Assembly: GCF_030019515.1 (NCBI RefSeq) | Contig: NZ_JASEEQ010000005.1 | Location: 63,810 to 87,809, forward strand | From: Nocardioides sp. | GTDB lineage: Bacteria; Actinomycetota; Actinomycetes; Propionibacteriales; Nocardioidaceae | Reading direction: 5' to 3' | Length of the DNA stretch: 24,000 nucleotides | In this document: piece by piece, positions 2,480-22,876 of the stretch | Numbering within the stretch: the first letter of the stretch is position 1 | Layout: each line of letters begins with the position of its first letter | Made by a program: the position numbers and the translations under genes | Notes under the pieces: generated by a model | Seen by the model: the letters and a program-made list of their open reading frames with translations, nothing else | Databases searched by the model: none | What the model was told of the DNA's origin: nothing

Positions 2480-3074
2480 GGACCACTACTTCAGCGCCGA
2501 CCCGTCGGTGCCGTTCGAGCGCGAGGCCTTCACCTGCGAGGTGTGGGGCCGCGAGCTGACGCTGGTGAGCGGCTCCGGAGTCTTCAGCAGGGGCCACCTC
2601 GACCACGCGACCGCGGTGCTGTTCCGCGAGACCGAGCCGCCGGTGCAGGGCCGGTTCCTCGACCTGGGCTGCGGGTACGGCGTGATCGGGCTGGCGATCG
2701 CCGCCGCCGTACCGCTCGCCTCGATCACCGCGGTCGACGTGAACGACCGCGCCATCGCGCTCGCCAACGAGAACGCCCGGGGGATGGGCGTGGCCGGCCG
2801 GTTCGTCGCGTGCCGGCCCGAGCAGGTCCCGACCGGCGAGGTGTACGACGAGATCTGGTCCAACCCGCCGATCCGGATCGGCAAGGAGGCGCTGCACGAG
2901 CTGCTGCTCACCTGGCTGCCGCGGCTCGCCCCGGGCGGCCGGGCGGTGATGGTGGTCGGCAAGAACCTGGGCGCCGACTCGCTGCAGCGTTGGCTCGGCG
3001 AGCAGGGCTGGCCGACCGAGCGGCTCGCGAGCGCCAAGGGGTTCCGGGTGCTGGAGACGCGGCGTGGTGACTGA
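2472..3074 (+). CDS. Class I SAM-dependent methyltransferase, MTS small-domain type (RsmC/RlmG-like rRNA m2G methyltransferase family)
   Basis: 200 aa. SAM-binding motif [16 protein letters not shown] and the catalytic NPPIRIG (NPPxH/I-type) motif are present. The ATG overlaps the truA stop by 8 nt. Confidence 0.75.
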
Positions 3075-3144
3075 CGGCGCCTTCCGGCCGGTCTTCGGCG
3101 TGGCCTCGCGGCGCTTCGTCACGCAGTGACCGGACCTCGGTCGG

Positions 3145-3193
3145 GGAGTGCGGTGGATCGGATGAACCAGGTTGATCCGATCCACCGCACTCC
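3145..3193. terminator. Long hairpin (19 perfect bp, one G-G mismatch, 3 more bp, 3-nt loop) in the convergent spacer
   Basis: GGAGTGCGGTGGATCGGATGAAC / CAG / GTTGATCCGATCCACCGCACTCC, paired base by base. It lies 71 nt after the methyltransferase stop and 169 nt beyond the esterase stop. No U tract. Confidence 0.5.
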
Positions 3194-3361
3194 TGCTGGG
3201 TGGGTCGCCCAGCCAAGCCCGAACCGCAGTGGACGCTCCTGGGCCTGGCGGCCGTCCGGCCCGATGCCATGGTCGATCCACGCTTCGGGCCTCGGCGGCC
3301 TCACGCTCGCCGGTGATGGTCGATAGGCCATCGGGACCGTCGGCCGGTGATCTCGGCCGCG

Positions 3362-4294
3362 TCAGCCGTGCAGGACCTTCCGGAACAGCGCACAGGTCTC
3401 GTCGAGCGCCTCCTGGGCGGCCGTGGAGTGCCGGCCCATGTCCGCGAAGCCGTGGATCAGGCCGGGGAAGGTCCGCACCTCGACCGGTACGCCGGCCGCG
3501 TCGAGCGCCTGTGCGTACGCGAGGCCGTCGTCGCGCAGCGGGTCGAACTCCGCGACCACGACGACCGCCGGGGCCAGGCCGGCGAGGTCGCCGTGCAGCG
3601 GGGAGAGTCGCGGGTCGGTGTGGTCCGTGAGGTGGCCGGCGTACTGCCGGAGGAACCAGTCCATCGACGCGCGGTCGAGGAAGTAGCCCTCGGCGTTCTC
3701 GGCGTGCGAGGGGTACTGGCCGCCCAGGTCGGTGACCGGGTAGATCAGCAGCTGCCCGGCCAGCGGGCGGGCCTCGTCGCGGAACGCCTGGGCGACCACG
3801 GCGGACAGGTTGCCGCCGGCGCTGTCCCCGGCCACCGCCATCCGGTCGTCGCCGCCGAGGTCGGCGAGGTGGTCCGCGACGTGCCGGGCGGCGGCCATCG
3901 CGTCGTCGACCGCGGCGGGGAACGGGTGCTCGGGGGCGAGCCGGTAGGCCACCGAGACGACCACCGCCGCGCACCCGTCGGCCAGGGTGCGGGCGGTGAT
4001 GTCGTGGGTGTCGAGGTCGCCGATCACGAAGCCACCGCCGTGCAGCAGCAGGATCGTGGGCAGCGGGCCCTCGCCGGCCGGGCGGTAGACCCGGGCCGGC
4101 AGGTCCCCGGCCGCACCGGGGACCGTCGTGTCCTCGACCGAGGCGACCGCGGGCACGGCCGCGGGGTCGCGCAGGTCCACGGTCAGCGTGCGGAAGCCGG
4201 CGCGGGCCTCCTCGGGCGTCCCCTCCGACATCGGCTTGGTCTCGGCCGCGGCGATGACGTCGAGCAGTACGGCGATCTGGGGGTCGACGGGCAC
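3362..4294 (-). CDS. Alpha/beta hydrolase, hormone-sensitive-lipase (HSL/family IV) type esterase/lipase
   Basis: This is the C-terminal part of the 686-aa track ORF. It has the HGGGF oxyanion motif (LLLHGGGFVIGD), the GDSAGG nucleophile elbow and a C-terminal GLIHGF. I place the start at GTG 4294..4292 (VPVDPQIAVLLD...), preceded by GAGGAG 6 nt upstream. That gives 310 aa. Confidence 0.85.
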   Translation of the reverse strand: MPVDPQIAVLLDVIAAAETKPMSEGTPEEARAGFRTLTVDLRDPAAVPAVASVEDTTVPGAAGDLPARVYRPAGEGPLPTILLLHGGGFVIGDLDTHDITARTLADGCAAVVVSVAYRLAPEHPFPAAVDDAMAAARHVADHLADLGGDDRMAVAGDSAGGNLSAVVAQAFRDEARPLAGQLLIYPVTDLGGQYPSHAENAEGYFLDRASMDWFLRQYAGHLTDHTDPRLSPLHGDLAGLAPAVVVVAEFDPLRDDGLAYAQALDAAGVPVEVRTFPGLIHGFADMGRHSTAAQEALDETCALFRKVLHG

Positions 4295-4310
4295 GGGTTC
4301 TCCTCGTTCG

Positions 4311-4370
4311 GGCCAGTGGTCGGGCCAGTGGTCGGGCCAGTGGTCGGGCCGGTGGTCGGCCGGTGGTCTG
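4311..4370. repeat. 12-bp tandem repeat, about 5 copies (GGCCAGTGGTCG x3, then GGCCGGTGGTCG and GCCGGTGGTCTG)
   Basis: Read directly: 4311-4322, 4323-4334 and 4335-4346 are identical, while 4347-4358 and 4359-4370 are degenerate. It fills the 77-nt spacer between the ACAD stop (4372-4374) and the esterase RBS/start. Confidence 0.9.
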
Positions 4371-4371
4371 G

Positions 4372-5607
<1,236 letters not shown>

Positions 5608-5608
5608 G

Positions 5609-6673
5609 TCAGTCCCCTCCCGTTCCCAGTGCGTCCAGGCCGGCCTCGACCAGGGGGTCGAAGCCGGCGCCGATCCTGTCGAAGCCCTCGCCGACGGTCT
5701 GGCCCTGGAGGAATCTGAAGCTGATGCCCTCGAGGATCACGGCGAGCTTGAAGTAGGCGAGCCCGAGGTGGAACCCCAGGCCCGAGCGGAGGTCCCCGAG
5801 GTCCCGGCCGCTGGCGACGGCGTACCGCGCGAGGTGCTGGTCCGGGGTCGGGTAGCCCGGCGCCAGGCTGACGTCGGACACCAGCCCGGCCGCGGGCAGC
5901 GCCCCGAGCCGGTCGTAGACCAGCAGCAGGGCGAGGTCGGTGCGGGTGTCGCCGAGCGTCGCCATCTCCCAGTCGACGACCGCCTTGACCTGGTCGTCGG
6001 CGCCGGTGAGCAGGTTGTCGAGGCGGTAGTCGCCGTGCACGACGCCGACGTGCTCGCGGGCCGTCTCGTCGTCGGGCACCCGCTCGGTCAGCAGCCGGTG
6101 CAGCTCGTCGGCGGCCGGGCGGTCCTGGGTCTTCGAGCCCTCGAGCTGCTGGCCCCAGCGCCGCACCTGGCGCCCCAGGAAGCCCTCGGGCCGGCCGAAG
6201 CCCGCGAGCCCGACCGCCGCGGGGTCGACCGCGTGCAGCGTGGCCAGCACGTCGATCATCCGGCCGGCGATGGTCGCGGTGCGCTCCGGGCCGAGCGACG
6301 CCAGCTGGGAGACCGAGCGGTACGCCGTGCCGGCGACCCGCTCCATCACGTAGAACGGCGCCCCGAGGACCTCGGGGTCGGCGCAGTGCGCGTACGTGGC
6401 GGGCACCGGGACGGCCGTGCCCGCCAGCGCGCTCATCGCGGTGTACTCGCGGCCCATGTCGTGGGCGGTCGCCTGGACGTGCCCGAGGGGCGGCCGGCGC
6501 ACGATCCACCAGGAGTCGCCGTCGGTGACCTCGTAGGTGAGGTTGGACCGGCCGCCGGCGATCACCTGGGCGCGCAGCTCACCCGCGATCTCACCGGGCC
6601 GCTGCTCGTCGTACCAGTGGCGGAAGGAGGCGAGGTCGAGGCCGGGGACGTCGTGGGCCCGCAGGTCGCTCAC
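5609..6673 (-). CDS. Phosphotransferase family protein (APH/choline-kinase fold, ACAD10/11 N-terminal-domain-like kinase)
   Basis: In-frame GTG at 6673 gives VSDLRAHDVPGLD...GGRSNLTYEVTDGDSWWIVRRPPLG. The Brenner/catalytic region is VVHGDYRLDNLL and the metal-binding region is VVDWEMATLGD. The GTGA start overlaps the upstream SDR stop by 4 nt. Its stop is 1 nt from the ACAD ATG. Confidence 0.85.
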   Translation of the reverse strand: MSDLRAHDVPGLDLASFRHWYDEQRPGEIAGELRAQVIAGGRSNLTYEVTDGDSWWIVRRPPLGHVQATAHDMGREYTAMSALAGTAVPVPATYAHCADPEVLGAPFYVMERVAGTAYRSVSQLASLGPERTATIAGRMIDVLATLHAVDPAAVGLAGFGRPEGFLGRQVRRWGQQLEGSKTQDRPAADELHRLLTERVPDDETAREHVGVVHGDYRLDNLLTGADDQVKAVVDWEMATLGDTRTDLALLLVYDRLGALPAAGLVSDVSLAPGYPTPDQHLARYAVASGRDLGDLRSGLGFHLGLAYFKLAVILEGISFRFLQGQTVGEGFDRIGAGFDPLVEAGLDALGTGGD

Positions 6674-7488
6674 GACGGCCGTCCGCCCTGGTCGACGGCC
6701 TCGTCGACCTTGTGCTGGAGGCGGCGCATCCCGGCCAGCCAGCGGTCGGTGTCGGTGGCGCGGGCGGCGTAGTAGCCGGCGACCTCGGGGTGGGGCAGCA
6801 CCAGGAACCGGTCGTCGTCGAGGGAGGCGACCCAGGCGTCGGCGACCTGCTCCGGCTCGAGCGCGACGTCGCGGGAGAGCAGCTCCTGCAGAGGACCCGC
6901 GTCCTCGAGCATCTGCGTGCGCACCCCCTGCGGGCAGATCGCCTGGACCACGATGCCGCGGTGGCCGTAGGTGACCGAGAGCCACTCGGCGAAGCCCACC
7001 GCGGCGTGCTTCGTGACGGAGTACGGCGCGCTGCCGATCATCGTCAGCAGCCCCGCCGCCGAGGCCGTGACCACGAACCGGCCGCCGCCGGACTCCAGCC
7101 AGCGCGGCACCAGCAGCCGGGCGGCGCGCACGTGCGCCATCACGTTGACCTCGAGGATCCGCTGCCAGTGCTCGTCGGGGGTCTGCAGGCTGTCGGCCGC
7201 GCCGAGGCCGCCGGCGCCGTCGATGCCGGCGTTGGCGCAGTACACGTCGATGCCGCCGAGCACCTCCGTGGCGCGCCCGACGAGCGCCGCGACGCCGTCG
7301 GCGGACGACGCGTCGCCCGGCACCGGCGTACCGCCGATGTCGTCGGCGACGGACCGCGCGGTGGCCGGGTCGAGGTCGTTGACGACCACGCGCGCGCCCT
7401 CGGCGGCGAGCCGGGTCGCCAGCGCACGTCCGATCCCGCGGCCGGCGCCGGTGACCACGACACCCTTGCCCCGGAGCTGCTCGTGCAT
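6670..7488 (-). CDS. SDR family oxidoreductase
   Basis: MHEQLRGKGVVVTGAGRGIGRALA (TGxxxGIG Rossmann motif), NAG, and the YSVTKHA (YxxxK) active site. The ATG at 7488 overlaps the upstream stop (ATGA). 272 aa. Confidence 0.85.
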   Translation of the reverse strand: MHEQLRGKGVVVTGAGRGIGRALATRLAAEGARVVVNDLDPATARSVADDIGGTPVPGDASSADGVAALVGRATEVLGGIDVYCANAGIDGAGGLGAADSLQTPDEHWQRILEVNVMAHVRAARLLVPRWLESGGGRFVVTASAAGLLTMIGSAPYSVTKHAAVGFAEWLSVTYGHRGIVVQAICPQGVRTQMLEDAGPLQELLSRDVALEPEQVADAWVASLDDDRFLVLPHPEVAGYYAARATDTDRWLAGMRRLQHKVDEAVDQGGRPS

Positions 7489-8240
7489 CAGACCCCGCCG
7501 GTGAGGGTCACGCCGCCGTCGAGCGTGATCGTCTGGCCGGTCACCCAGGCCGCGTCGTCGGAGAGCAGGAAGGTCACCGCGCCGGCGACGTCTTCGGGGA
7601 CACCGAGGCGCTTGAGCGGGTAGCTCGCGGCGACCTCGTCCTCGCGACCCTCGAAGAGCGGGCCCGCGAACTGCGTCTTCACGATCGCGGGCGCCACCGC
7701 GTTGACCCGAACGGTCGGGCCGAGCTCGACCGCGAGCGACTCGGTGAGGCTGATCAGCATCGCCTTGGAGGCGCCGTACATGGCGATGCCCGGGGCCGGC
7801 TTGACCCCGGAGACCGAGGAGATGTTGACGACCGCGCCGCCGTGCTCGGCCATCCAGGCCCGGTGCGCGGACTGCACCCAGGCCAGGGCACCGAGGGCGT
7901 TGACCTCGACGATCTTGCGCGCGGCCGCGAGGTCGATGTCGACCAGGCTCGAGAGCACCGGGTTGATGCCGGCGTTGTTGACCAGCAGGTCGAGGCTGCC
8001 GAACGTCTCGATGGTGCGGCGTACGGCGTCCTCGCGGTGCTCGGGGTCGTCGGCCTTGCCGGCCACGGCGATCGCGTGCTCGGCGCCGCCGAGGCTGCGC
8101 ACGGCCTCCTCGAGTGCCTCGGGCTTGCGGGCGGTCAGGCAGACCTTGGCGCCCTCGTCGACCAGGCGCCGGGCGATGCCCAGCCCGATGCCGCGGCTGG
8201 CCCCGGTCACGATCGCGACCTTGCCGGCGATTCCTTGCAC
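7488..8240 (-). CDS. SDR family oxidoreductase (FabG / 3-oxoacyl reductase-like)
   Basis: 250 aa. VAIVTGASRGIGLGIA, NNAG and YGASKAM (YxxxK) are present. GTG start, with AGGAGG 5 nt upstream. Confidence 0.85.
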   Translation of the reverse strand: MQGIAGKVAIVTGASRGIGLGIARRLVDEGAKVCLTARKPEALEEAVRSLGGAEHAIAVAGKADDPEHREDAVRRTIETFGSLDLLVNNAGINPVLSSLVDIDLAAARKIVEVNALGALAWVQSAHRAWMAEHGGAVVNISSVSGVKPAPGIAMYGASKAMLISLTESLAVELGPTVRVNAVAPAIVKTQFAGPLFEGREDEVAASYPLKRLGVPEDVAGAVTFLLSDDAAWVTGQTITLDGGVTLTGGV

Positions 8241-8287
8241 GTGTCCTCCTGCGTCCTGGCTTGCTCTGAACTAAGCGCTTGCTTACC
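8241..8287. promoter_or_regulatory. Divergent promoter/operator region between the SDR operon and the TetR gene
   Basis: Contains the perfect 8-bp palindrome AAGCGCTT (8273-8280). CTTGCT is directly repeated at 8260-8265 and 8278-8283. It is relatively AT-rich (CTCTGAACTAAGC). Operator assignment is inference. Confidence 0.3.
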
Positions 8288-8884
8288 ATGCGGTGCATGA
8301 GCGCGTCCAGCCCCGTTCCCGATGCCCGGACCCGGCTCGCGGCCGCCGCCGTGGACGCGTTCGCCGCGCGCGGCTTCCACGGGACGACCACGCGCGACAT
8401 CTCCACCACCGCCGGGATGAGCCCGGCCGCGCTCTACGTCCACCACCGCTCCAAGGAGGAGCTGCTCTTCGAGCTGGCCCGGCTCGGACACCTGCGGGTG
8501 CTCGACCTGGTACGCGCGTCGGTGGCGCCGCTCTCCGACCCCGTGGCCCAGCTCGGTCAGCTCGTCGAGGACTTCGTGCGCGACCACGCCGAGGCGCACA
8601 CCGGGGCGCGGGTCATCAACTACGAGCTCGCCGCGCTGCGCCCCGAGCACCTCGCCGAGATCCGTACGATCCGGCACGAGATCGACCTGGTGCTGCGCGA
8701 GGTGATCGAGCGCGGCGTCGCGACCGGTGTCTTCACCACGCCGGATCCGCGGATGACCGCGCTCGCCGTCCTGTCGCTCGGCATCGACGTCGCGCGCTGG
8801 TACCGCGAGGAGGGGCGCTGGACCCCCGACGAGGTCGCCGCCCACTACCGGCTGCTCGCGCTGCGGATGGTCGGCGCCGCTTAG
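8288..8884 (+). CDS. TetR/AcrR family transcriptional regulator
   Basis: The N-terminal HTH RLAAAAVDAFAARGFHGTTTRDISTTAGMSPAALYVHHRSKEELL is the classic TetR_N pattern. The start is ambiguous: TTG 8279, ATG 8288 or ATG 8297. Confidence 0.85.
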   Translation: MRCMSASSPVPDARTRLAAAAVDAFAARGFHGTTTRDISTTAGMSPAALYVHHRSKEELLFELARLGHLRVLDLVRASVAPLSDPVAQLGQLVEDFVRDHAEAHTGARVINYELAALRPEHLAEIRTIRHEIDLVLREVIERGVATGVFTTPDPRMTALAVLSLGIDVARWYREEGRWTPDEVAAHYRLLALRMVGAA

Positions 8885-8906
8885 CCGCGCCGGTCGCCAG
8901 ACGCGG

Positions 8907-10532
8907 TCAGATCCAGCGCGAGAACCAGATCCGGTCCAGCCACTCGGAGTGGGTGAGCAGCTGGTCGGTGTAGATCGGCCAGAACCAGGCGAAATTCAGC
9001 AGCACCAGCACGAAGAACGTGCCCGCGGCGATCACGCCGGCGGTGCGCCGGCCCGAGGGTCCGTCGGCCGGGCCGATCATCCGGCCGATCGCGAGGACCA
9101 GCGCGAGCACCAGGAACGGCAGCGTGATCACCGCGTAGAAGGAGAAGATCGGCCGGTCGTCGTACTGCAGCCACGGCAGCCAGGTCGAGGCGGCGCCGAC
9201 GACCACGACGCCGAAGCGCCAGTCCCGGGAGCCGGCCCACATCACGACGGCGAAGACCAGCGCGAGGCAGCCGGCCCACCAGAGGACGGGGGTGCCGAGC
9301 AGCAGCACCTGGCGCAGGCAGTCGCTGTCGGCGGGGGCGTGGCAGCCCTGGCTGCCGGGCTGGATGTCGACGTCGGCGGCGACGCCCACCGGGCGGTTGA
9401 GCAGCAGCCAGCCGGACGGCTGGGAGGCGTAGGTGTGCGTGCTGTCGTTGAGGAACCGGGTGTGGAAGGTGTAGACGTCCTGGTGGTAGTACCAGAGCGA
9501 CCGCAGCGACTGGGTCACCTCGCCCAGGCCGGACGCGTCCGCCTCGGTGCGGGTCGGCCAGTCCTGGCCGCCGTCGAAGTGCGTGTACTGCGTGGCGGAG
9601 AGGTGCTCCTCGTACTCGTGCGCATTGACCAGCCAGCCGCTCCAGGTCGCGACGTACACGAAGAACGCGACCAGCACGAGGTGCACGAACGCCGGGATGC
9701 CGTCGACCACCGCGGCGCGCAGGATCGGCCACCGCACCCCGAACGAGCGGCGGGCGCCCGCCGACCACAGCCAGACCATCAGCCCGAACGCGGCGAGCGG
9801 GTAGACCGCCTCCCACTTGGTGCCGACCGCCAGTCCCCAGCAGATCCCGCCGAGCAGCAGCCAGGGCCGGAACAGCACTCCGCGCACCGGTCCCCACGCC
9901 CGAGAGTCGTCGATCGGCGCGGGGACCAGACGGGCGAGCCGGGCGCGGTGCCAGTCCCGGTCGGCGACCACGCAGTGCACGCCGCAGAGCAGGAAGAACG
10001 CCACGAAGATGTCGAGCAGGGCGAGCCGGGACAGCACGAACTGGAGGCCGTCGAAGCACAGCAGCAGCCCGGCCAGGACGCCGAGGAACGTCGAGCCGGT
10101 GAGCCGCCGGGCGAGCCGGATCATCACCAGCACCATCAGCGAGCCGATGACGGCGGCCGCGACCCGCCAGCCGAACGGGTCCATCCCGAAGACCTTGATG
10201 CCCGCCGCGATCAGCCACTTCCCGACCTCGGGGTGGACGATCATCTCGGGGGTGTCCTTGAAGACGCCGGAGAGCGTCTGGCCCCGCAGGATCAGGTCGT
10301 TCGCCTTCTCCGTGGTGTCGTGCTCGAAGCCGTAGTTGAGCAGCGACCAGGCGTCCTTGGCGTAGTAGGTCTCGTCGAACTCGAAGACGTGCGGGCGGCC
10401 GAGCCTCCACAGCCGCAGGAACAGGGCCAGCAGCGTGACCGCGACGGTCGCCGTCCAGCCGATGAACGGGTCCTCGAGCCGGGCCCGGCTCCGGGCGCGC
10501 TCCCAGGCGGAGGGAGGGGCGCCGGTCGTCAC
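8907..10532 (-). CDS. pmt: Dolichyl/polyprenyl-phosphate-mannose protein O-mannosyltransferase (PMT family, GT39)
   Basis: C-terminal 541 aa of the 848-aa track ORF. It is polytopic and has the DE motif in loop 1 (HVFEFDETYYAKDA) typical of Pmt. It is divergent from rsmI, as in mycobacteria (Rv1002c/Rv1003). Start assigned to GTG 10532 (VTTGAPPS...); no other start codon is available upstream in frame. Confidence 0.85.
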   Translation of the reverse strand: MTTGAPPSAWERARSRARLEDPFIGWTATVAVTLLALFLRLWRLGRPHVFEFDETYYAKDAWSLLNYGFEHDTTEKANDLILRGQTLSGVFKDTPEMIVHPEVGKWLIAAGIKVFGMDPFGWRVAAAVIGSLMVLVMIRLARRLTGSTFLGVLAGLLLCFDGLQFVLSRLALLDIFVAFFLLCGVHCVVADRDWHRARLARLVPAPIDDSRAWGPVRGVLFRPWLLLGGICWGLAVGTKWEAVYPLAAFGLMVWLWSAGARRSFGVRWPILRAAVVDGIPAFVHLVLVAFFVYVATWSGWLVNAHEYEEHLSATQYTHFDGGQDWPTRTEADASGLGEVTQSLRSLWYYHQDVYTFHTRFLNDSTHTYASQPSGWLLLNRPVGVAADVDIQPGSQGCHAPADSDCLRQVLLLGTPVLWWAGCLALVFAVVMWAGSRDWRFGVVVVGAASTWLPWLQYDDRPIFSFYAVITLPFLVLALVLAIGRMIGPADGPSGRRTAGVIAAGTFFVLVLLNFAWFWPIYTDQLLTHSEWLDRIWFSRWI

Positions 10533-10580
10533 GGGCCCGAGGATACGGGCCCCGAGATCAGACGCTGCGATGATCGGGGC

Positions 10581-11441
10581 GTGGACGACAGCCTGGGCGT
10601 GCTCGTGCTGGCGGCGACCCCGATCGGCCGGGTCGCCGACGCGCCGCCGCGGCTCGCCGACGAGCTGGCGACCGCCGACGTCGTCGCTGCCGAGGACACC
10701 CGCCGGCTCAAGCGGCTCACGACCGAGCTCGGGGTGAGCATCGGCGGTCGCGTCGTGTCCTACTTCGAGGGCAACGAGTCGGCCCGCACGCCGGCGCTGC
10801 TCGAGAGCCTCCTCGCCGGTGAGCGGGTGCTGCTGGTCACCGACGCGGGCATGCCCAGCGTCTCCGACCCCGGCTACCGCCTGGTGGTCGCCGCCGTCGA
10901 GCACGACGTGCGGGTCACCGCGGTCCCCGGCCCGTCGGCGGTCCTGACCGCGCTCGCGGTCTCCGGCCTGCCGGTCGACCGGTTCTGCTTCGAGGGGTTC
11001 CTGCCCCGCAAGCCGGGGGAGCGGCGGCGCCGCCTCGCCGACCTGCGCGACGAGCGCCGCACGATGGTGTTCTTCGAGGCGCCGCACCGCACCGAGGCCG
11101 CGCTCGCCGCGATGGCCGAGGCGCTCGGCGCCGACCGCGCGGCCGCGGTGTGCCGCGAGCTCACCAAGACCCACGAGGAGGTACGACGAGGTCCGCTCGC
11201 CGAGCTCGTGGCCTGGGCGGCCGAGGGGGTGCGCGGCGAGGTCACCCTCGTGGTCGCGGGCGCCGAGCCGGCGGCCGAGGTCGCGAGCGACCCGGCGAGC
11301 TTGCGGGCCGCGGTCGCCGACCTGGAGAGTGAGGGCGTGCCGCGCAAGGAGGCGATCGTCGTGGTCGCTCGCCGCGCCGGCGTACCGAAGCGCGAGGTCT
11401 ACAACCTGGTTCACGACAAGGGCCACGGAGCACAGGAGTGA
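10581..11441 (+). CDS. rsmI: 16S rRNA (cytidine1402-2'-O)-methyltransferase RsmI
   Basis: In-frame GTG at 10581 gives VDDSLGVLVLAATPIGRVADAPPRL...DAGMPSVSDPGYRLV...TAVPGPSA, a tetrapyrrole-methylase-fold RsmI signature. The upstream part of the 830-aa track ORF is antisense to pmt and is not coding. Confidence 0.9.
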   Translation: MDDSLGVLVLAATPIGRVADAPPRLADELATADVVAAEDTRRLKRLTTELGVSIGGRVVSYFEGNESARTPALLESLLAGERVLLVTDAGMPSVSDPGYRLVVAAVEHDVRVTAVPGPSAVLTALAVSGLPVDRFCFEGFLPRKPGERRRRLADLRDERRTMVFFEAPHRTEAALAAMAEALGADRAAAVCRELTKTHEEVRRGPLAELVAWAAEGVRGEVTLVVAGAEPAAEVASDPASLRAAVADLESEGVPRKEAIVVVARRAGVPKREVYNLVHDKGHGAQE

Positions 11442-12295
11442 GCATGAGCGCACGGATCACCCGGCTGGAGCACGACGGCCTCACCTTCGACGTCCTCGAC
11501 GAGGGGCCGCTGGACGGGCCCCCGGTCGTGCTGCTGCACGGCTTCCCGGAGCGCAGCTCGACCTGGGCGGCGGTCGCGCCGATCCTGCACGGGGCGGGGC
11601 TCCGCACCTACGCCCTCGACCAGCGCGGCTACTCCCCGGGCGCGCGGCCGCGCGGTCGGTGGAGCTACCGGCTCCCGCTCCTGGTCGGCGACGTCGCTGC
11701 GCTGATCGAACGGATCGGCCGGCCCGTCCACCTGGTCGGGCACGACTGGGGCGCCGCGGTCGGCTGGGCCGTCGCCGGACGGCTCCCGGAGCAGGTCCGC
11801 ACCTTCACCGCAGTGTCGGTGCCGCACCCCGCCGCCTTCGTCCGGGCGATGAGGAGCCGGAGCCAGCGCCGGCGGTCCGGCTACATGGCGCTGTTCAACC
11901 TCCCGGTGCTCCCCGAGCTGATGGCGCGGGCGCCCGGCGGCCGCTTCGATCGAGCGATGCGCAAGGCCGGGATGACCGCCGAGGAGGTCGTCCGGTTCCG
12001 CACCGAGATCGTCGAGTACGGCGCGCTGCACCACGCGCTCGGGTGGTACCGCGGCGTGCCGTTCACCCGCCCGGGCAGCACCGACGTCACGGTGACGGTC
12101 CCGACCACGCTGGTGTGGAGCGACCGGGACATCGCCATCGGTCGCGAGGGGGTCGACGGCACCGCGCGCTGGGTGGACGCGCCGTACGACCTGGTCGTGC
12201 TCGAGGGCGTCAGCCACTGGATCCCGACCCAGGCGCCCGAGGAGTGCGCGGCCGCGATCCTGGCCCGCGTGCGGGGCACGGAAGCGACGCGGTGA
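11438..12295 (+). CDS. Alpha/beta fold hydrolase (epoxide hydrolase / haloalkane dehalogenase-like)
   Basis: 285 aa. It has the HGFP oxyanion motif (VVLLHGFPERS) and the nucleophile elbow GHDWGA (Asp nucleophile type). GTG 11438 overlaps the rsmI stop. ATG 11444, with AGGAG 5 nt upstream, is an alternative start. Confidence 0.85.
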   Translation: MSMSARITRLEHDGLTFDVLDEGPLDGPPVVLLHGFPERSSTWAAVAPILHGAGLRTYALDQRGYSPGARPRGRWSYRLPLLVGDVAALIERIGRPVHLVGHDWGAAVGWAVAGRLPEQVRTFTAVSVPHPAAFVRAMRSRSQRRRSGYMALFNLPVLPELMARAPGGRFDRAMRKAGMTAEEVVRFRTEIVEYGALHHALGWYRGVPFTRPGSTDVTVTVPTTLVWSDRDIAIGREGVDGTARWVDAPYDLVVLEGVSHWIPTQAPEECAAAILARVRGTEATR

Positions 12296-14597: not shown

Positions 14598-15476
14598 ATG
14601 TCTGACACCTCGGCCGGTCCCAGGTTGCTGGGACCGGCCGAGGTGCGCCTGCTCGCCGCCGAGCTCGACCTGCGACCCACCAAGCAGCGCGGGCAGAACT
14701 TCGTCATCGACGCGAACACGGTGCGGCGCATCGTCCGCGAGTCCGGCGTCACCGCCGAGGACGTGGTGCTCGAGGTCGGTCCGGGCCTGGGCTCGCTGAC
14801 CCTCGCGCTGCTCGCCGTCGCCGGCCGGGTGGTCGCCGTCGAGGTCGACCCGGTGCTCGCCGGCCGGCTGCCCGAGACGATCGCGACGTACGCGCCCGGC
14901 CAGGCGGGCCGGTTCGAGGTCGTCCTCGGCGACGCGATGCGGATCCAGGAGGTGCCCGGCCCGGCCCCGACCGCCCTGGTCGCGAACCTGCCCTACAACG
15001 TCTCCGTGCCGGTGCTGCTGCACCTGCTCACCCTGCTGCCCTCGCTCGAGCGGGGCCTGGTGATGGTGCAGTCCGAGGTCGCCGACCGGCTCGCCGCGCC
15101 CCCCGGCTCCAAGGTGTACGGCGTCCCCTCGGTCAAGGCCGCCTGGTTCGCCGACGTCCGCCGGGCCGGTGCGGTCGGCCGCAACGTGTTCTGGCCCGCG
15201 CCCAACGTGGACTCCGGCCTGGTGGCGTGGACCCGCCGCGAGCCGCCGGCCACGACCGCCGACCGAGCCCAGGTGTTCGCGGTCGTGGACGCCGCGTTCG
15301 CCCAGCGCCGCAAGGCACTGCGCGGCGTGCTGCGCTCGCTCGCCCCGGCGGAGGCGGTCGACGCCGCACTGGCCGGCGCGGGCGTGGACCCGCTGGCCCG
15401 CGGGGAGTCGCTGCGGGTCGGGGACTTCGCCCGGATCGCGGAGCGGCTGCCGTGGGAGGTGCAGCCGTGGAGGTGA
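14598..15476 (+). CDS. rsmA: 16S rRNA (adenine1518/1519-N6)-dimethyltransferase RsmA/KsgA
   Basis: ATG at 14598 gives [46 protein letters not shown]...[12 protein letters not shown]...[11 protein letters not shown], the canonical KsgA motifs. The upstream portion of the 406-aa track ORF is not coding. Confidence 0.95.
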
Positions 15477-16372
15477 CCGTGCGCGCCCCCGCGAAGATCA
15501 ACCTGCACCTCGGGGTCGGCGCCCCCGGTGCGGACGGCTTCCATCCCCTGGTCACGGTGTACCAGGCGGTCGGCCTCTACGACGACGTCACCGCGCGCGA
15601 GGCGCCGGACTGGAGCCTGGGCGTCGGCCTGCCGGACTGGATGGACGACGACGCCGTACCCCTCAACGGCGCGAACATCGTCGACCGGGCCGCCGACCTG
15701 CTCGCGGCCCACCACGGGGTCGAGCGGAGCGGCGAGCTGCACATCGCCAAGGCGATCCCGGTCGCGGGCGGCATGGCCGGCGGCTCCGCGGACGCCGCCG
15801 CGGCGCTGGTCGCCCTGGACCGGCTCTGGGGGCTGGGCACGTCCGACGACGACCTCCTCGCGCTCGCCGCCCGGCTGGGCAGCGACGTGCCGTTCGCGCT
15901 GCTGGGCGGCACCGCGCTGGGGACCGGCCGCGGCGAGCTGGTCACGCCGGTGCAGGACCGTGGCACCTGGTGGTGGGTGGTCGTCCCCTCCGACACCGGC
16001 CTGTCGACCCCGGAGGTCTACCGGCACTTCGACCGGATGTTCCCCGACGCGCCCGCCCAGCCGGTGCCCGCCGACGCAGTGCTCGGCGCGATCGCCGTGG
16101 GCGACGCCTGGGAGCTCGCGGACGCCCTGCACAACGACCTCGAGGCGGCCGCGATCGACCTGCGGCCCGAGCTGGGCCGGCTGATCGAGCAGGGCGAGGA
16201 GGCCGGGGCGCTGCGCGGCCTGGTGTCCGGCTCCGGGCCCACCTGCGTGTTCCTGTGCGGCTCCGCGGACCACGCCCGCTCGCTGGCCGCCGACCTGTCC
16301 GGCGCCGGCCATCCGGTCGTCCTGGCGGCCAACGGGCCGGTCGCCGGCGCCCACCTGGTCTCCTATGCCTAG
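15467..16372 (+). CDS. ispE: 4-(cytidine 5'-diphospho)-2-C-methyl-D-erythritol kinase IspE
   Basis: GTG 15467 (GGGAGG 7 nt upstream, 10-nt overlap with the rsmA end) gives [17 protein letters not shown]. The GHMP kinase motif is [15 protein letters not shown]. Confidence 0.93.
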
Positions 16373-18242
16373 CCCCGGGACCAACCTGGTCAACCTCGAG
16401 CGGGTCTCCAAGGCGTACGGCGTCCGGCCGCTGCTCACCGAGGTCTCGCTCGGCATCGGCGCCGGCGAGCGGGTCGGCATCGTCGGCCGCAACGGCGACG
16501 GGAAGACCACGCTCCTCGAGCTGATGACGGGGTTGGAGGAGCCGGACTCGGGACGGGTCTCCCGCAGCCGTGGGCTGCAGGTCGGGTACCTCCACCAGGC
16601 CGACCAGCTGGAGGACTCGCACACCGTGCGCGAGGCGGTGCTGGCCGGTCGCTCCGACCACGAGTGGGCCGCGGACCCGCGCACCCGTGAGGTCGTCGAG
16701 GTGCTGCTGGCCGGCGTGGCGCTGGACCGCGCGGTGCTCGGCCTGTCCGGCGGCGAGCGCCGGCGCTGCTCGCTCGCCGCGCTGCTGCTCGGCGAGCACG
16801 ACCTGGTGGTCCTCGACGAGCCGACCAACCACCTCGACGTGGAGGCGGTCGCCTGGCTGGCGGACCACCTGGTCCGCCGTACCTCCGCGCTCGTCGTCGT
16901 CACCCACGACCGCTGGTTCCTCGACGCGGTCTGCCAGTGGACCTGGGAGGTGCACGACGGCGTCGTGGACGTCTACGAGGGCGGGTACGCCGCCTTCGTG
17001 CTGGCCAAGGCCGAGCGGCTGCGGCAGGCGGCGGCCTCGGAGGTGCGCCGGCAGAACCTGGTCCGCAAGGAGCTGGCCTGGCTGCGCCGCGGGCCGCCGG
17101 CCCGGACCTCGAAGCCGAAGTTCCGCATCGACGCGGCCAACCAGCTGATCGAGGACGTGCCGCCCCCGCGGGACCGGCTCGAGCTGCAGCGGTTCGCCAC
17201 CCAGCGGCTCGGCAAGGACGTGGTCGACGTCGAGGACGTCGACCTGATCCGCGGGACGCCGGGGGAGGGCGGCCGGCAGCTGCTCGCGCACGCGACCTGG
17301 CGGCTCGGGCCCGGCGACCGGGTCGGCATCGTCGGGGTCAACGGCGCCGGCAAGACCTCGGTGCTGTCGCTGCTCTCCGGCGAGCTCGCGCCGTCGGCGG
17401 GGCGGGTCCGGCTGGGCCGGACCGTCGCGCTGCAGCACCTCACCCAGCAGCTCGACGACCTCGACCCCGAGGGCCGGGTGCTGGCGACCGTCGAGTCGAT
17501 CCGGCGGGTGACCAGGACCACCGACGGGGAGGTCACCGCGAGCGCGATGCTGGAGCGCTTCGGCTTCACCGGCGACCGGCTCACCGCCCGGGTCGGCGAC
17601 CTGTCCGGGGGCGAGCGGCGGCGCTTCCAGCTGCTGCGGCTGCTGCTCACCGAGCCCAACGTGCTGCTGCTAGACGAGCCCACCAACGACCTGGACATCG
17701 AGACGCTCAACGTCCTGGAGGACTTCCTCGACGGCTGGCCCGGCACGCTCGTGGTCGTCTCCCACGACCGGTACTTCCTCGAGCGGGTCACCGACTCGGT
17801 GTGGGCGCTGCTCGGCGACGGGCAGATCTCGATGCTGCCCCGCGGCGTCGACGAGTACCTCGAGCGGCGGAGCGAGCAGCTCCGCGCGGGGGACGAGCGC
17901 GCGGCGTGGGCGAGCGAAGGTCGAGCACGCGACGCCGCCGAGGGACGAGGCGGCGCGAGCGGGTCGGGACCCGGTGAGCCGGTCGCCGGCCCCGGCCTCC
18001 GCCACGTCCCCAAGGCCAAGCCCGGGAGTGCGGAGGAGCGGGCGGCACGCAAGACGATCGCCCGGATCGACAAGCGCCTCGAGCGGATCGCGGAGCAGGA
18101 GGCGACGCTGACCGCGCGGGCGCTCGAGCACGCGCAGGACTACGAGCGGCTCGCCGAGCTCAGCGAGGAGCTGCAGACGCTTGCTGCGGAGAAGGACGAG
18201 CTCGAGCTCGAGTGGCTCGAGGCGGCCGAGCTGCTGGAGTAG
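16365..18242 (+). CDS. ABC-F family ATPase (two ABC domains, Uup-like with C-terminal coiled coil)
   Basis: 625 aa. Walker A GRNGDGKT and GVNGAGKT, signatures LSGGERRR (twice), Walker B LVVLDEPTNHLD and VLLLDEPTNDLD. The C-terminus is charged and helical. No TM domain. The ATG overlaps the ispE stop by 8 nt. Confidence 0.9.
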   Translation: MPSPGTNLVNLERVSKAYGVRPLLTEVSLGIGAGERVGIVGRNGDGKTTLLELMTGLEEPDSGRVSRSRGLQVGYLHQADQLEDSHTVREAVLAGRSDHEWAADPRTREVVEVLLAGVALDRAVLGLSGGERRRCSLAALLLGEHDLVVLDEPTNHLDVEAVAWLADHLVRRTSALVVVTHDRWFLDAVCQWTWEVHDGVVDVYEGGYAAFVLAKAERLRQAAASEVRRQNLVRKELAWLRRGPPARTSKPKFRIDAANQLIEDVPPPRDRLELQRFATQRLGKDVVDVEDVDLIRGTPGEGGRQLLAHATWRLGPGDRVGIVGVNGAGKTSVLSLLSGELAPSAGRVRLGRTVALQHLTQQLDDLDPEGRVLATVESIRRVTRTTDGEVTASAMLERFGFTGDRLTARVGDLSGGERRRFQLLRLLLTEPNVLLLDEPTNDLDIETLNVLEDFLDGWPGTLVVVSHDRYFLERVTDSVWALLGDGQISMLPRGVDEYLERRSEQLRAGDERAAWASEGRARDAAEGRGGASGSGPGEPVAGPGLRHVPKAKPGSAEERAARKTIARIDKRLERIAEQEATLTARALEHAQDYERLAELSEELQTLAAEKDELELEWLEAAELLE

Positions 18243-20919: not shown

Positions 20920-21399
20920 ATGAGCCAGGTCCTCATCCTGTGGCACAAGACGAGCGCGCTCCCCGTCGTGGGCAGCCGGGTGTTCTCGGTGCTGTTCGCG
21001 CAGAAGGCGCCGTACTTCGCCTCGATCCGCCCCCGCTTCCTCACCATCGAGCCGAACCGAGTCGAGCTGCTGATCCCCAAGCGGCGCCGGGTGCACAACC
21101 ACCTCGGCACCGTGCACGCGATCGCGCTGTGCAACGGTCTCGAGGCTGCGATGGGCGCGCTCGCCGAGGTCACGATCCCGGCCGACCGGCGCTGGATCCC
21201 CCAGGGGATGGAGGTCGCCTACACCGCCAAGGCGACCAGCGACATCGTGTGCATCGCCGAGACCGACCCCGAGCAGTGGCGCTCCGACGCGCTGCCCGAC
21301 ACCGGAGGTCAGCTGCCGGTGCGCGTGCAGGGCGTCCGCGACGACGGCACCGTCGTCATCGAGGGCGTGATCCGGCTCTGGGTCACCCCGCGGGCGTGA
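20920..21399 (+). CDS. DUF4442 domain protein (hotdog-fold, PaaI/thioesterase-like)
   Basis: 159 aa. APYFASIRPRFLTIEPNRVELLIPKRRRVHNHLGTVHAIALCNGLEAAMG matches the DUF4442 family pattern as I recall it. TAATAT (20908-20913) ends 6 nt before the ATG, a candidate leaderless promoter. Confidence 0.75.
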   Translation: MSQVLILWHKTSALPVVGSRVFSVLFAQKAPYFASIRPRFLTIEPNRVELLIPKRRRVHNHLGTVHAIALCNGLEAAMGALAEVTIPADRRWIPQGMEVAYTAKATSDIVCIAETDPEQWRSDALPDTGGQLPVRVQGVRDDGTVVIEGVIRLWVTPRA

Positions 21400-22876
21400 G
21401 CAGGATCGGGTTCGTCAGCGCCACCATCTGCCCCGTGGCCGAGCTCCGGCGCACCTCCGCTCGGACGAACGCCGTGCCGCCCGGCACGGTCGCGTCGAGG
21501 ACCACCGTCCCGCCACTGGCGATCGCCGTACCGTAGGTCGCCGCCGCCGGGCCGAGCAGCGTCGCCACGCAGCCGTCGTCCAGGCCGCTCGCCTCGAGGT
21601 GTACGGCGACCTCGTCGCCGACCGCGCTCGGCACCCGGTCGCCGCACTCGCCGCTGACGTCGCCGAGGGTCGCGGTGAACGTCAGGCCGATGCCCGAGGA
21701 CTCGGCGATCCAGGAGTGCCCGGCCCGGTAGCCGGCGATTATCGCCTCGGTCGAGAGCGACTCCGCGCGTACCACGGTCTGGGCCAGGCCGATCTGCTGC
21801 GCCTGCCGGTGGGTGTCGGAGTTGCCGACCGCGGGCTTGAACGTGCCCGCGCTGAGCAGGGTGTGCCAGCGCTTCACCGTCTGTGCGTTGAAGACGGCGT
21901 TCACGCCGGACCAGGGGCCGTTCCACACCTCGACCGCGTCGACCTCGGAGAACCCCGCGTCGTAGTCCCAGCGGATCGACGGCACCGGCACGCTCGGGTG
22001 CGCGGCGATGGACAGCCCACCCAGGTCGCGCACCTGCTGGGTGAACTCCGCGAGCCGGTCGTCCTCGGGACGGTAGCGCCAGTCGATCCAGGTGTCGGCG
22101 GGCAGCCCGGTCGCCAGCCAGTGCCCGCCGCGGGTGGTGACCTCCTCACCGTTGATCACCAGGAAGCCCTCGGGCACGTGCCGGCCCCAGGTCCGCGTCG
22201 CCGAGCTGTTGTTGTGCTCGGAGGTCCCGATGAAGTCGAGGCCGGCGGCCTGGGCGTACTCGAGCACCTGGCGCCGCGTCTGCGAGCCGTCGGAGAACAC
22301 GGTGTGCACGTGCAGGTCGCCGCGGTACCAGCCGTGGCCGGTGCCCGGGACCGCGGTCGGCGCCGGTGCGGACTCGAAGGCCGGCCCGCGCGGGCCGAAG
22401 CGCAGGGTGACCGTCACCTCGTAGTCGACCCGGCTCATGATCTGGTACGGGCCCAGTGAGATCCGCCAGCGTCCCGGCTCGATCGGCCCGGCCAGGTAGC
22501 CCGGCGTGGCCGACCCGCGGCTGAGGCGGAACGAGGAGCGCGCGCCACCCGTCCAACCCCGGAAGCCGGCGGCGTTGCCCAACCCCACCCCGGAGGGGTC
22601 GAAGATGCCGATGTCGATGACGTTCGTGCTGAAGCCGAACCCGGTGTCGTTGGGCGGCGGATAGGAGTAGGAGACCTCGATCTGGCGTACGCCGCGGGGC
22701 ACCCGGAACGGCAGGTATCGCCAGTCCTCGGTGTCCGTGGGGGAGAAGTGGCCCCGGAACTTCTTGGTGACCGTCGAGCCGGCGGCCGCGGGCTCGAAGG
22801 TGGTCAGCGCGGCGGTGGTCGCCACGCCGGCTCCGGAGAGCAGGAGCCGGCGACGGTCGAGGTGATGGCTGCTCAT
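21383..22876 (-). CDS. Tat-secreted PHP-domain metallohydrolase (CehA/McbA family)
   Basis: 497 aa. Twin-arginine signal [24 protein letters not shown]. An N-terminal beta-rich domain precedes the PHP motifs [18 protein letters not shown] and GNSDTH. Its 3' end overlaps the convergent DUF4442 gene by 17 nt. Confidence 0.8.

Follow-up and report, generated by a model that had tools for sequence, protein, structure and literature searches.

The region at 3362-8884 of the window, by which we mean the whole 24-kb stretch of Nocardioides DNA analysed here, most likely carries a TetR-repressed catabolic operon that would bring 4-hydroxyacyl-CoAs, and probably 4-oxoacyl-CoAs, into beta-oxidation. 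We give this reading a probability of about 65%. [quoted passage not shown] The evidence lies in homology and active-site residues of the proteins, together with the coupling of the genes, their synteny and a conserved palindrome.

Organization of the operon

Five tightly packed genes were found on the minus strand, coding for SDR1, SDR2, an APH kinase, an ACAD and a family-IV esterase, with a TetR gene divergent from them. The features are as follows.

3145..3193, no strand: hairpin, likely bidirectional terminator; perfect stem with 24-nt arms, inverted repeat with 96% complementarity
3362..4294, minus: family-IV (HSL-type) carboxylesterase, 310 aa, terminal gene, GTG start, ribosome-binding site GAGGAG; Abhydrolase_3 5.7e-73
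4295..4371, minus: 77-nt spacer between ACAD and esterase genes; about 6 tandem copies of a 12-nt unit (GACCACYGGCCC), array at 4308-4382
4372..5607, minus: ACAD10/11/LvaC-type enzyme of the acyl-CoA dehydrogenase fold, 411 aa; assigned by PDB matches and signature motifs
5609..6673, minus: APH-fold kinase, 354 aa, GTG start; Pfam APH 3.4e-50 and PDB matches
6670..7488, minus: SDR2, short-chain dehydrogenase, 272 aa; Pfam adh_short 7e-41
7488..8240, minus: SDR1, classical short-chain reductase, 250 aa, GTG start, ribosome-binding site AGGAGGA; Pfam adh_short_C2 6.6e-59
8271..8286, no strand: candidate TetR operator CTAAGCGCTTGCTTAC, inverted repeat CTAAGC-N4-GCTTAG, abutting the TetR start
8288..8884, plus: TetR-family regulator; Pfam TetR_N and TetR_C_24

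All genes were located where the initial annotation had placed them, as five coupled co-directional genes and a divergent TetR gene. The GTGA overlap of the SDR2 and kinase genes was present, as was the single base between the kinase stop and the ACAD ATG. The ATGA overlap described for the two SDR genes was wrong, since this junction reads TGATG with a 1-nt overlap (SDR1 TGA at 7490-7488, SDR2 ATG at 7488-7486). The repeat-filled spacer was recovered, and Tandem Repeats Finder counted 6.3 copies of the 12-nt unit with 89% match. A search inside the region gave neither a consensus promoter nor a consensus terminator. The hairpin at 3145..3193 occupies the gap between the convergent esterase and methyltransferase genes and folds as RNA with -59.5 kcal/mol (z -5.84; none of 200 shuffles was equally stable).

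The kinase and the acyl-CoA dehydrogenase

The solved structures closest to the kinase were all ACAD10/11-type kinases (9o56, 3.8e-52; 3dxp, 2.5e-48; ACAD11, 8e-42), with identities of 35% to the Caldalkalibacillus thermarum kinase and 32% to the ACAD11 kinase domain. The previously reported motifs GGRSNLTYEV (40-49), RRPPLG (59-64) and HGDYRLDN (213-220) were all found. All catalytic residues are kept. The key residues of the protein are D215, N220, DWE 234-236, RRPPLG and R168, and conservation extends to the beta-3 Arg and the Arg that contacts CoA. By its sequence the protein falls into the ACAD10/11-type kinase clade, as expected from its earlier likening to the ACAD10/11 N-terminal phosphotransferases, and is predicted to be a 4-hydroxyacyl-CoA 4-kinase.

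The ACAD matched ACAD11 (2wbi, 8v3u) at about 1e-132 and 4hr3 at 3e-128, whereas the next best match, an ordinary ACAD, reached 9e-47. It is 53% identical to the dehydrogenase domain of mouse ACAD11, and its residues D387, R260, H268 and R271 align to D753, R626, H634 and R637. The motif ADGPDEVH (386-393) stands where the canonical catalytic Glu motif is expected. Besides the catalytic Asp D387, the protein carries the phosphate-binding RLGPGRIHHCMR cluster and NCAAPDTGNME; Asp for the canonical Glu, this cluster and APDTGNME are hallmarks of ACAD10/11 according to PMC12440821 and PMC11342911. These sequence features place the ACAD in the ACAD10/11/LvaC clade, apart from ordinary ACADs, in keeping with its first description as ACAD10-11-like, and it is predicted to eliminate phosphate from 4-phosphoacyl-CoA.

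The short-chain dehydrogenases

Both SDR assignments are based on about 30-38% identity to families of broad specificity. The top structures for SDR1 were DHRS4 carbonyl reductases (2.4e-48), and the TARK sequence after beta-2 indicates that the enzyme is probably NADPH-dependent. For SDR2 the top structure was 2et6 (6.5e-32), which is the yeast MFE-2 (3R)-hydroxyacyl-CoA dehydrogenase and shares the GAxVVVND motif; from VVVNDLD it is probably NAD-dependent.

The TetR regulator and its candidate operator

The TetR protein may start at ATG 8288 or, equally well, at the conserved ATG 8297, and TTG 8279 is possible. Its top structure was 3him, an uncharacterised Rhodococcus TetR (2.8e-36), and its orthologues adjoin SDR1 at many loci. 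The palindrome CTAAGC-N4-GCTTAG lies in the 47-bp divergent gap between the TetR and SDR1 genes and has a single match in the window against an expectation of 0.11. It is identical across four close relatives and was found in 44 of 81 sources, either in the gap between the TetR gene and the first gene or upstream of unlinked kinase-ACAD pairs. In Kitasatospora it stands upstream of kinase-ACAD pairs that are 7-9 kb away from TetR-SDR1-SDR2. This recurrence, also upstream of unlinked pairs, suggests a TetR regulon and adds support to the proposed TetR control of the operon.

Conservation of the gene order

The kinase gene is immediately upstream of the ACAD gene in 60 of 77 actinobacterial loci, so the neighbourhood check called for by the initial annotation came out in favour of kinase-ACAD synteny across Actinobacteria. 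Orthologues of SDR1, SDR2 and TetR are linked at many loci, and all four partners were present in 18 of the 59 fully visible ones. In longer versions of the operon the added genes encode enzymes of acyl-chain redox or hydration, namely a PTGR1-type ene-reductase, an MDR of the quinone-oxidoreductase type, a FabG-like SDR and a MaoC hydratase. This five-gene operon was also found in Nocardioides sp. JS614 and in three metagenomic relatives. The arrangement is not due to chance: independent genomes show this gene order as well.

The proposed pathway

We infer the enzymatic activities as follows. SDR1, DHRS4-like and with an NADP-type motif, would most likely reduce a 4-oxo group to give the 4-hydroxy substrate, an LvaD-like step. 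The APH-fold kinase would phosphorylate the 4-hydroxyl of 4-hydroxyacyl-CoA with ATP, and the translationally coupled ACAD10/11-type flavoenzyme would remove the phosphate by a redox-neutral elimination that depends on FAD and yields 2-enoyl-CoA. Such an elimination was shown for mouse and human ACAD10/11, P. putida LvaA/LvaC and a B. pseudomallei pair, according to PMC12440821 and PMC11342911. The most likely role of SDR2, MFE-2-like and with an NAD-type motif, is the oxidation of the 3-hydroxyacyl-CoA formed downstream. The TetR protein probably sits on CTAAGC-N4-GCTTAG and is probably released by a ligand of the acyl-CoA type.

No CoA ligase, transporter or hydratase genes were found in the 24-kb window, and no frame of it contains an AMP-binding ligase signature, which bears out the reported lack of a CoA ligase. 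CoA activation would require a ligase encoded elsewhere. Literature searches found no experimental work on any actinobacterial member. The proposed actinobacterial split version of the ACAD10/11 (Lva-like) pathway, with a kinase and an ACAD-lyase, is supported by homology, active-site residues and gene context including synteny.

The terminal esterase

The esterase scored 361 bits with the NCBIfam LipP1 family HSL model (cut-off 350), carries HGGG, GDSAG (Ser158) and His281, and matched PDB esterases with values up to 4.6e-74. It may free hydroxy acids from esters or lactones as the last gene added to the operon in the Nocardioides clade. Alternatively, the core chemistry is as proposed and the esterase is a co-transcribed neighbour acquired in this lineage that neither supplies 4-hydroxy acids nor acts as a lactonase; we consider this to have a little less than an even chance. 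Its orthologues are confined to Nocardioides-clade loci (L001, L002, L081-L084), and it is missing at about 75 of the 80 other actinobacterial loci. The esterase is an addition of this clade outside the wider actinobacterial module. In L001 and L002 three extra ACAD genes lie between the kinase-ACAD pair and the esterase gene.

The junction is also unstable. The spacer between the ACAD and esterase genes varies from 28 to 168 nt among relatives; L082 and L083 have a single copy of the 12-nt unit, JS614 has a gene remnant and the window a repeat expansion. RNA folding of the 77-nt spacer was not significant (z -0.62); the spacer represents a local expansion where a deletion left its scar. Broad specificity, typical of family-IV esterases, would also fit a bystander. 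Against this, the esterase gene closes the same co-directional cluster in all 7 Nocardioides-clade loci and has its own ribosome-binding site, no terminator-like structure separates it from the upstream genes, and the sole strong hairpin is downstream of it.

Alternative functions of the operon

A 2026 preprint (PMC13596139) describes a second in-vitro substrate of the kinase family, 1-O-alkylglycerol. The kinase could accordingly be an acyl-CoA-stimulated lipid kinase for 1-O-alkyl- or 1-O-acylglycerol, with the HSL-type esterase/lipase yielding monoacylglycerol or free fatty acid in an operon for glycerolipid turnover. Its top PDB match is indeed the C. thermarum enzyme 9o56, which like other prokaryotic homologues phosphorylates chimyl alcohol in vitro, some of them requiring acetyl-CoA for full activity (PMC13596139), and the operon does end with an HSL-family esterase. 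However, the kinase is coupled and syntenic with an ACAD that bears the ACAD11 phosphate-binding cluster, and most actinobacterial loci lack the esterase. In addition, the C. thermarum kinase and that of Cytobacillus are themselves found in acyl-CoA clusters with TetR, an ACAD10/11-type ACAD (56-58% identical to the window ACAD), SDR, ECH or 3HCDH, thioesterase and MDR, and for this reason the alkylglycerol activity fails to separate the two contexts. The authors of PMC13596139 state that the relation between the 4-hydroxyacyl-CoA and alkylglycerol activities is not clear. We regard glycerolipid turnover as unlikely.

A conventional FadE-type alpha,beta-dehydrogenase for ordinary acyl-CoAs next to an unrelated antibiotic or small-molecule kinase, as the public annotation ('acyl-CoA dehydrogenase', 'aminoglycoside phosphotransferase family') and weak NCBIfam matches to APH(3') and assorted ACADs might imply, is very improbable, as these matches are all far under the cut-offs, ADGPDEVH replaces the catalytic Glu motif, the similarity to ACAD11 is far above that to any standard ACAD and the kinase-ACAD coupling is kept in two phyla.

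Comparison with known systems

The 4-hydroxyacyl-CoA operon proposed here shares both catalytic modules with mammalian ACAD11/ACAD10 (mouse ACAD11 8v3u, 8v3v; PMC12440821 and PMC11342911), with 53% identity for the ACAD and 32% for the kinase. The two share the catalytic Asp in both modules, the R/H/R phosphate cluster, APDTGNME, DWE and the Arg that contacts CoA. The mammalian modules are fused in one polypeptide, whereas Nocardioides has two translationally coupled proteins, no HAD domain and the setting of a bacterial operon with TetR, two SDRs and an esterase.

The P. putida lva operon (lvaRABCDEFG; Rand et al. 2017) was compared by its description in the same two papers. It likewise combines a kinase, a phosphate-eliminating ACAD and an SDR reductase of the same families. 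The Nocardioides cluster differs by having two SDRs and a terminal esterase, by a TetR in place of the sigma-54 regulator LvaR, and by the absence of LvaB, the LvaE ligase and the transporters. The 1-nt gap between kinase and ACAD leaves no room for an LvaB gene, which agrees with the earlier statement that such a small subunit is absent. Without LvaB, LvaE and LvaR the cluster does not qualify as an lva operon proper; of the suggested lva-type pathway, the functional likeness to the lva or ACAD10/11 pathway stood and membership in the lva operon type did not.

The B. pseudomallei pair Q63VL0/Q63VL1 replaced the ACAD10 kinase and ACAD domains in vitro, as given in the available part of PMC11342911. 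By this description it is also a split bacterial kinase/ACAD pair, with no LvaB-like partner mentioned there, and it is of proteobacterial origin. The C. thermarum kinase 9o56 (locus L086, PMC13596139) is the nearest solved relative, and its reported in-vitro substrate differs from the one proposed here. Its cluster resembles ours in TetR, an ACAD10/11-type ACAD (58% identical), SDRs and MDR; the kinase and ACAD genes are not adjacent, and ECH, a thioesterase, a VLCAD-like ACAD, a CoA-transferase and a thiolase are extra.

The operon of Nocardioides sp. JS614 (chromosome CP000509.1, about 4,081,595-4,087,196, L084) matches ours gene for gene (TetR, SDR1, SDR2, kinase, ACAD, esterase), occupies the same position between pmt and truA and has the same operator; its kinase is 84% identical. 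Its 168-nt spacer holds 43 codons left over from a deleted ACAD gene and no 12-nt array. The JS614 genes are annotated only generically. In conclusion, the pathway type is already known, and the Nocardioides locus adds an example of it and not a new kind of pathway.

Organisation of the operon

The genes were placed from the ORF listing, the codon-position G+C and domain scans. In the window, which has a G+C content of about 74%, the six genes called by the initial annotation were all recovered in their places:

3362-4294, minus strand, family-IV esterase (Abhydrolase_3, 5.7e-73; NCBIfam LipP1 HSL, 361 bits with a cut-off of 350)
4372-5607, minus strand, ACAD (three ACAD domains)
5609-6673, minus strand, APH kinase (PF01636, 3.4e-50)
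6670-7488, minus strand, SDR2 (adh_short)
7488-8240, minus strand, SDR1 (adh_short_C2)
8288-8884, plus strand, TetR (TetR_N and TetR_C_24)

The junctions were read directly. SDR2 and the kinase overlap by GTGA, one base separates the kinase stop from the ATG of the ACAD gene, and the spacer between the ACAD and the esterase is 77 nt long, all as first described. For SDR1 and SDR2 an ATGA overlap had been claimed, but the junction reads TGATG with a 1-nt overlap, which is a minor correction. The peptide motifs quoted for the kinase and the ACAD were all found. Consensus promoters or terminators were not detected in a scan of 3000-9000, as expected at 74% G+C, and searching the window for Rfam families and tRNA genes gave no matches.

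The ACAD belongs with ACAD10, ACAD11 and LvaC

When the ACAD was compared with all PDB sequences by phmmer, human and mouse ACAD11 were matched at about 1e-132, whereas the best ordinary ACAD reached 9e-47. The M. abscessus structure 4hr3 was matched at 3e-128 in the PDB search, and the dehydrogenase domain of mouse ACAD11 is 53% identical to the window ACAD. In ACAD11, D753 is the catalytic Asp and R626, H634 and R637 of the HCMR helix accommodate the phosphate (PMC12440821). The residues were aligned allowing for a one-residue offset of the PDB sequence. D387, within the ADGPDEVH that stands where canonical ACADs have their Glu motif, aligned with D753, and in the phosphate-binding helix RLGPGRIHHCMR the residues R260, H268 and R271 aligned with R626, H634 and R637. 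The window ACAD also has GRLGPG and, at residues 101-111, NCAAPDTGNME with the signature APDTGNME; the supplement of PMC11342911 tabulates both signatures for ACAD10, ACAD11 and both bacterial LvaC proteins. At the sequence level the protein agrees with the ACAD10/11/LvaC family on every point, and it is predicted to turn 4-phosphoacyl-CoA into 2-enoyl-CoA in an FAD-dependent reaction without an electron acceptor. A literature search on FadE2/FadE36 yielded no functional data; 43 apparent 'fadE2' matches in PMC12704764 were fadE25, a word-start artefact.

The kinase and the possibility of an alkylglycerol substrate

The best solved relatives of the kinase in the PDB search were 9o56, the ACAD10-type kinase of Caldalkalibacillus thermarum (3.8e-52), and 3dxp (2.5e-48). 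The kinase domain of ACAD11 was matched at 8e-42, whereas the next PDB match reached only 3e-12. The catalytic Asp and Asn are kept as D215 and N220 (D220 and N225 in ACAD11), together with DWE at 234-236 and the alpha-C Glu, and the beta-3 Lys is replaced by Arg (RRPPLG, 59-64). R168 is the equivalent of R176, the CoA-contacting Arg of ACAD11. The kinase is 32% identical to ACAD11 and 35% identical to its C. thermarum relative, in the same range as the 29% that PMC11342911 gives for LvaA against ACAD10/11. In APH fold, nearest solved relatives and key residues the kinase has every sequence feature of the ACAD10/11-kinase family, and it is predicted to phosphorylate 4-hydroxyacyl-CoA with ATP.

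A minor rival is a role as alkylglycerol kinase. ACAD10-type kinases, among them the best PDB match here from C. thermarum, phosphorylate 1-O-alkylglycerols in vitro; some require acetyl-CoA for full activity, and how this activity relates to that on 4-hydroxyacyl-CoA was called unclear by the authors (PMC13596139). However, the C. thermarum and Cytobacillus kinases both sit in clusters with a TetR gene and an ACAD10/11-type ACAD, which is 58% and 56% identical, respectively, to the window ACAD. These clusters also hold SDRs, an ECH or 3HCDH, a thioesterase, a VLCAD-like ACAD and an MDR, and one locus has an AMP-binding ligase, the other a CoA-transferase and a thiolase, so the genomic context there also points to acyl-CoA metabolism. 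The SDRs of these Bacillales clusters are only 28-38% identical to SDR1 and SDR2, which is not decisive for orthology. In the C. thermarum locus (L086) a 2-phosphosulfolactate-phosphatase-family gene (PF04029, 8073-8825) lies immediately 3' of the kinase gene; it is of note because in mammalian ACAD10 the kinase domain adjoins a phosphatase (HAD) domain.

The two SDRs

The standard coenzyme rule for SDRs links the residues after beta-2 to the use of NADP or NAD. SDR1 found its best structures among the DHRS4 NADPH-dependent carbonyl reductases (2.4e-48) and has basic residues (TARK) after beta-2, an NADP-type motif. The best structure for SDR2 was the (3R)-hydroxyacyl-CoA dehydrogenase of yeast MFE-2 (6.5e-32), with which it shares GAxVVVND and an acidic residue after beta-2. 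By this rule, SDR1 is suggested to be an NADPH-dependent reductase and SDR2 an NAD-dependent dehydrogenase. The pair would fit a 4-oxo reduction (LvaD-like) and a 3-hydroxy oxidation; since the identities are low and the families broad, we infer these roles only.

Conservation across Actinobacteria

With the window ACAD as query, a genome-collection scan retrieved 80 loci from Actinobacteria, 71-87% identical and closest in Nocardioides, and the window proteins were compared with these loci by tblastn. The kinase lies immediately 5' of the ACAD in 60 of the 77 loci with sufficient flank, and overlaps it or is slightly more distant in three further loci. In 59 loci the flanks reach at least 8 kb to each side; of these, 30 have an orthologue of SDR1, 33 of SDR2 and 26 of TetR, and the kinase, both SDRs and TetR occur together in 18.

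Longer versions of the operon, for example in an Actinoplanes locus (L014), have extra genes inserted between TetR and the kinase. These encode a PTGR1-type ene-reductase (ADH_N_2), a quinone-oxidoreductase-type MDR, a FabG-like SDR and a MaoC hydratase, all of them enzymes of acyl-chain redox or hydration, and the MaoC and SDR pair is a split equivalent of peroxisomal MFE-2.

In the Aeromicrobium-like loci L054, L067, L068, L073, L075 and L076 the ACAD10/11-type ACAD has no adjacent kinase, and the order is palindrome (see the next section), MaoC hydratase, ACAD and an SDR2-like gene (46-49% identity). There, the kinase gene lies at another site or the ACAD functions alone.

A candidate TetR operator

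The 47-bp gap between SDR1 and TetR holds CTAAGCGCTTGCTTAC at 8271-8286, an inverted repeat CTAAGC-N4-GCTTAG. This is the sole match in the window, with 0.11 expected. Of 81 sources (about 1.5 Mb in total), 44 have the palindrome, against about 0.1 chance matches by a rough base-composition estimate. It lies nearly always in the gap beside the TetR gene or before the first operon gene, and the four closest relatives have it unchanged. In six Kitasatospora or Streptomyces loci, where TetR-SDR1-SDR2 are located 7-9 kb from the kinase-ACAD pair, a copy lies about 60 nt 5' of the kinase; one locus (L065) has a second copy beside TetR. The TetR protein consists of a TetR_N HTH domain and a ligand domain, and its gene borders the divergent gap with the palindrome. 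A TetR operator with a small regulon would be expected to show this distribution, from which we infer the binding. No published characterisation of the palindrome or of any actinobacterial member was found in the literature.

The esterase and its unstable flanks

The esterase has the Abhydrolase_3 fold with the HGGG oxyanion motif, the GDSAG nucleophile elbow and the catalytic His, and its orthologues are limited to the Nocardioides clade. In two loci (L001 and L002), three extra ACAD genes, an alpha/beta-type pair and a standard ACAD, lie between the ACAD10/11-type gene and the esterase. Close kinase homologues led to four more loci, at 96% (a metagenomic contig), 86% (two loci) and 84% identity (Nocardioides sp. 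JS614), which have exactly the five-gene operon of the window, between pmt and truA. The view that the esterase came to its place by a deletion accident in the window only, prompted by the three extra ACAD genes of L001 and L002, was revised with these four relatives. The deletion itself is real: in the JS614 spacer a 43-codon reading frame joins the start of the third extra ACAD (first 37 codons; 62% identity, E 2e-12) to its end (last 10 codons; 7 of 10 residues), a deletion scar. As the esterase is the last gene in all seven versions, its position argues for co-expression and is silent on the substrate.

The spacer between the ACAD and the esterase had been described as repeat-filled, and Tandem Repeats Finder indeed reported 6.3 copies of a 12-nt unit at 4308-4382. 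In the four further loci the spacer measures 49 nt, 28 nt (L082 and L083) and 168 nt (JS614). CCGACCACCGGC occurs once in the 28-nt spacer; in the window this unit has been amplified about six-fold. The window repeat is thus an expansion specific to its lineage, at a junction that is unstable. A structured RNA or attenuator in the spacer was rejected, as the predicted fold was no better than chance (z -0.62).

Downstream of the esterase, the convergent gap to the MTS methyltransferase gene holds a near-perfect hairpin at 3145-3193, whose 24-nt arms are joined by a 1-nt loop (RNA fold -59.5 kcal/mol, z -5.84). As a terminator of the operon it is a good candidate, and probably a bidirectional one. 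It was not seen in the related loci examined and could also be a small inserted element. The gap spans 287 nt in the window (3075-3361) and holds two to four extra genes in relatives: GtrA-like and LRAT-domain genes in L081 (5852-6855) and in L082 and L083 (L082, 11280-13535), all three metagenomic, and genes for a YCII protein and a sigma factor in JS614 (L084, 11392-13382). This side of the esterase is as unstable as its junction with the ACAD.

Other features of the window

The Pmt ORF at 8907-11453 (minus strand) is 848 residues long, and its PMT domain begins at residue 338. Relatives have a Pmt of 541 residues, alongside a divergent TP_methylase (RsmI-like) gene. The full length in the window was therefore rejected as a probable high-GC over-extension, and the TP_methylase gene should be found at about 10580-11441 on the plus strand. 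Long minus-strand ORFs at 14996-16903, 21386-22876 and 23490-23987 have a coding-like codon bias but matched nothing in Pfam at E<=1e-5; the one at 14996-16903 shares its stretch with further long ORFs and is possibly spurious. A DUF4442 gene (hotdog-fold, thioesterase-like) is located at 20920-21399, about 12 kb from the operon.

Proposed function

The split ACAD10/11-type pathway proposed in the initial annotation is supported by the family features found in both the kinase and the ACAD. We give a probability of about 0.65 to a TetR-repressed operon that would feed 4-hydroxy- or 4-oxo-acyl-CoAs into beta-oxidation, the entry route running over the kinase and then the phosphate-eliminating ACAD. 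It is a much more speculative and rather improbable idea that the window holds the minimal form of a widespread actinobacterial TetR regulon, marked by CTAAGC-N4-GCTTAG, which would dispose of lipid-peroxidation-type 4-oxo- or 4-hydroxy-alkenoyl compounds (4-HNE/4-ONE derivatives) or gamma-lactones. Its fuller versions would combine a PTGR1-type ene-reductase, a DHRS4-like carbonyl reductase, an MFE-2-like dehydrogenase, a MaoC hydratase and the kinase/ACAD pair. If this were true, the accessory genes would name the steps up- and downstream of the ACAD10/11 reaction, including that in mammalian peroxisomes, and point to the physiological source of 4-hydroxy acids.

How enzymes break down 4-hydroxy acids was worked out only in 2017-2025, and the second, alkylglycerol activity of the kinase is under debate. 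With a separate kinase and ACAD, defined accessory reductases and a candidate operator and repressor, the operon offers a simple test system, and a sequenced, named strain, Nocardioides sp. JS614, has the same one. It could be used to ask for the pathway substrate, the inducer and the acyl-CoA specificity of the kinase. Public annotation of the homologues is generic only; the reading would correct 'aminoglycoside phosphotransferase' and 'acyl-CoA dehydrogenase' on thousands of such genes.

Comparison with the lva operon and other split pairs

The absence of an LvaB-like gene and of a CoA ligase, both claimed before, was confirmed: the 1-nt gap between kinase and ACAD leaves no free space within SDR1-ACAD, and neither an AMP-binding signature in the six frames of the 24 kb nor such a Pfam match among the ORFs scanned was found. 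[quoted passage not shown] It is controlled by the sigma-54-type LvaR, whereas the window operon has TetR, and it encodes the transporters LvaF/G, whereas the window operon has none and its neighbours are housekeeping genes. For the reduction of 4-oxoacyl-CoA to 4-hydroxyacyl-CoA the lva operon has the SDR reductase LvaD; the window has two SDRs, of which SDR1, with its NADP-type motif, is DHRS4-like. Split bacterial pairs from P. putida and B. pseudomallei are reported in PMC11342911 to do this chemistry, so the core of the operon is not new chemistry. In conclusion, the window cluster would work like the lva pathway but is not an lva operon itself.
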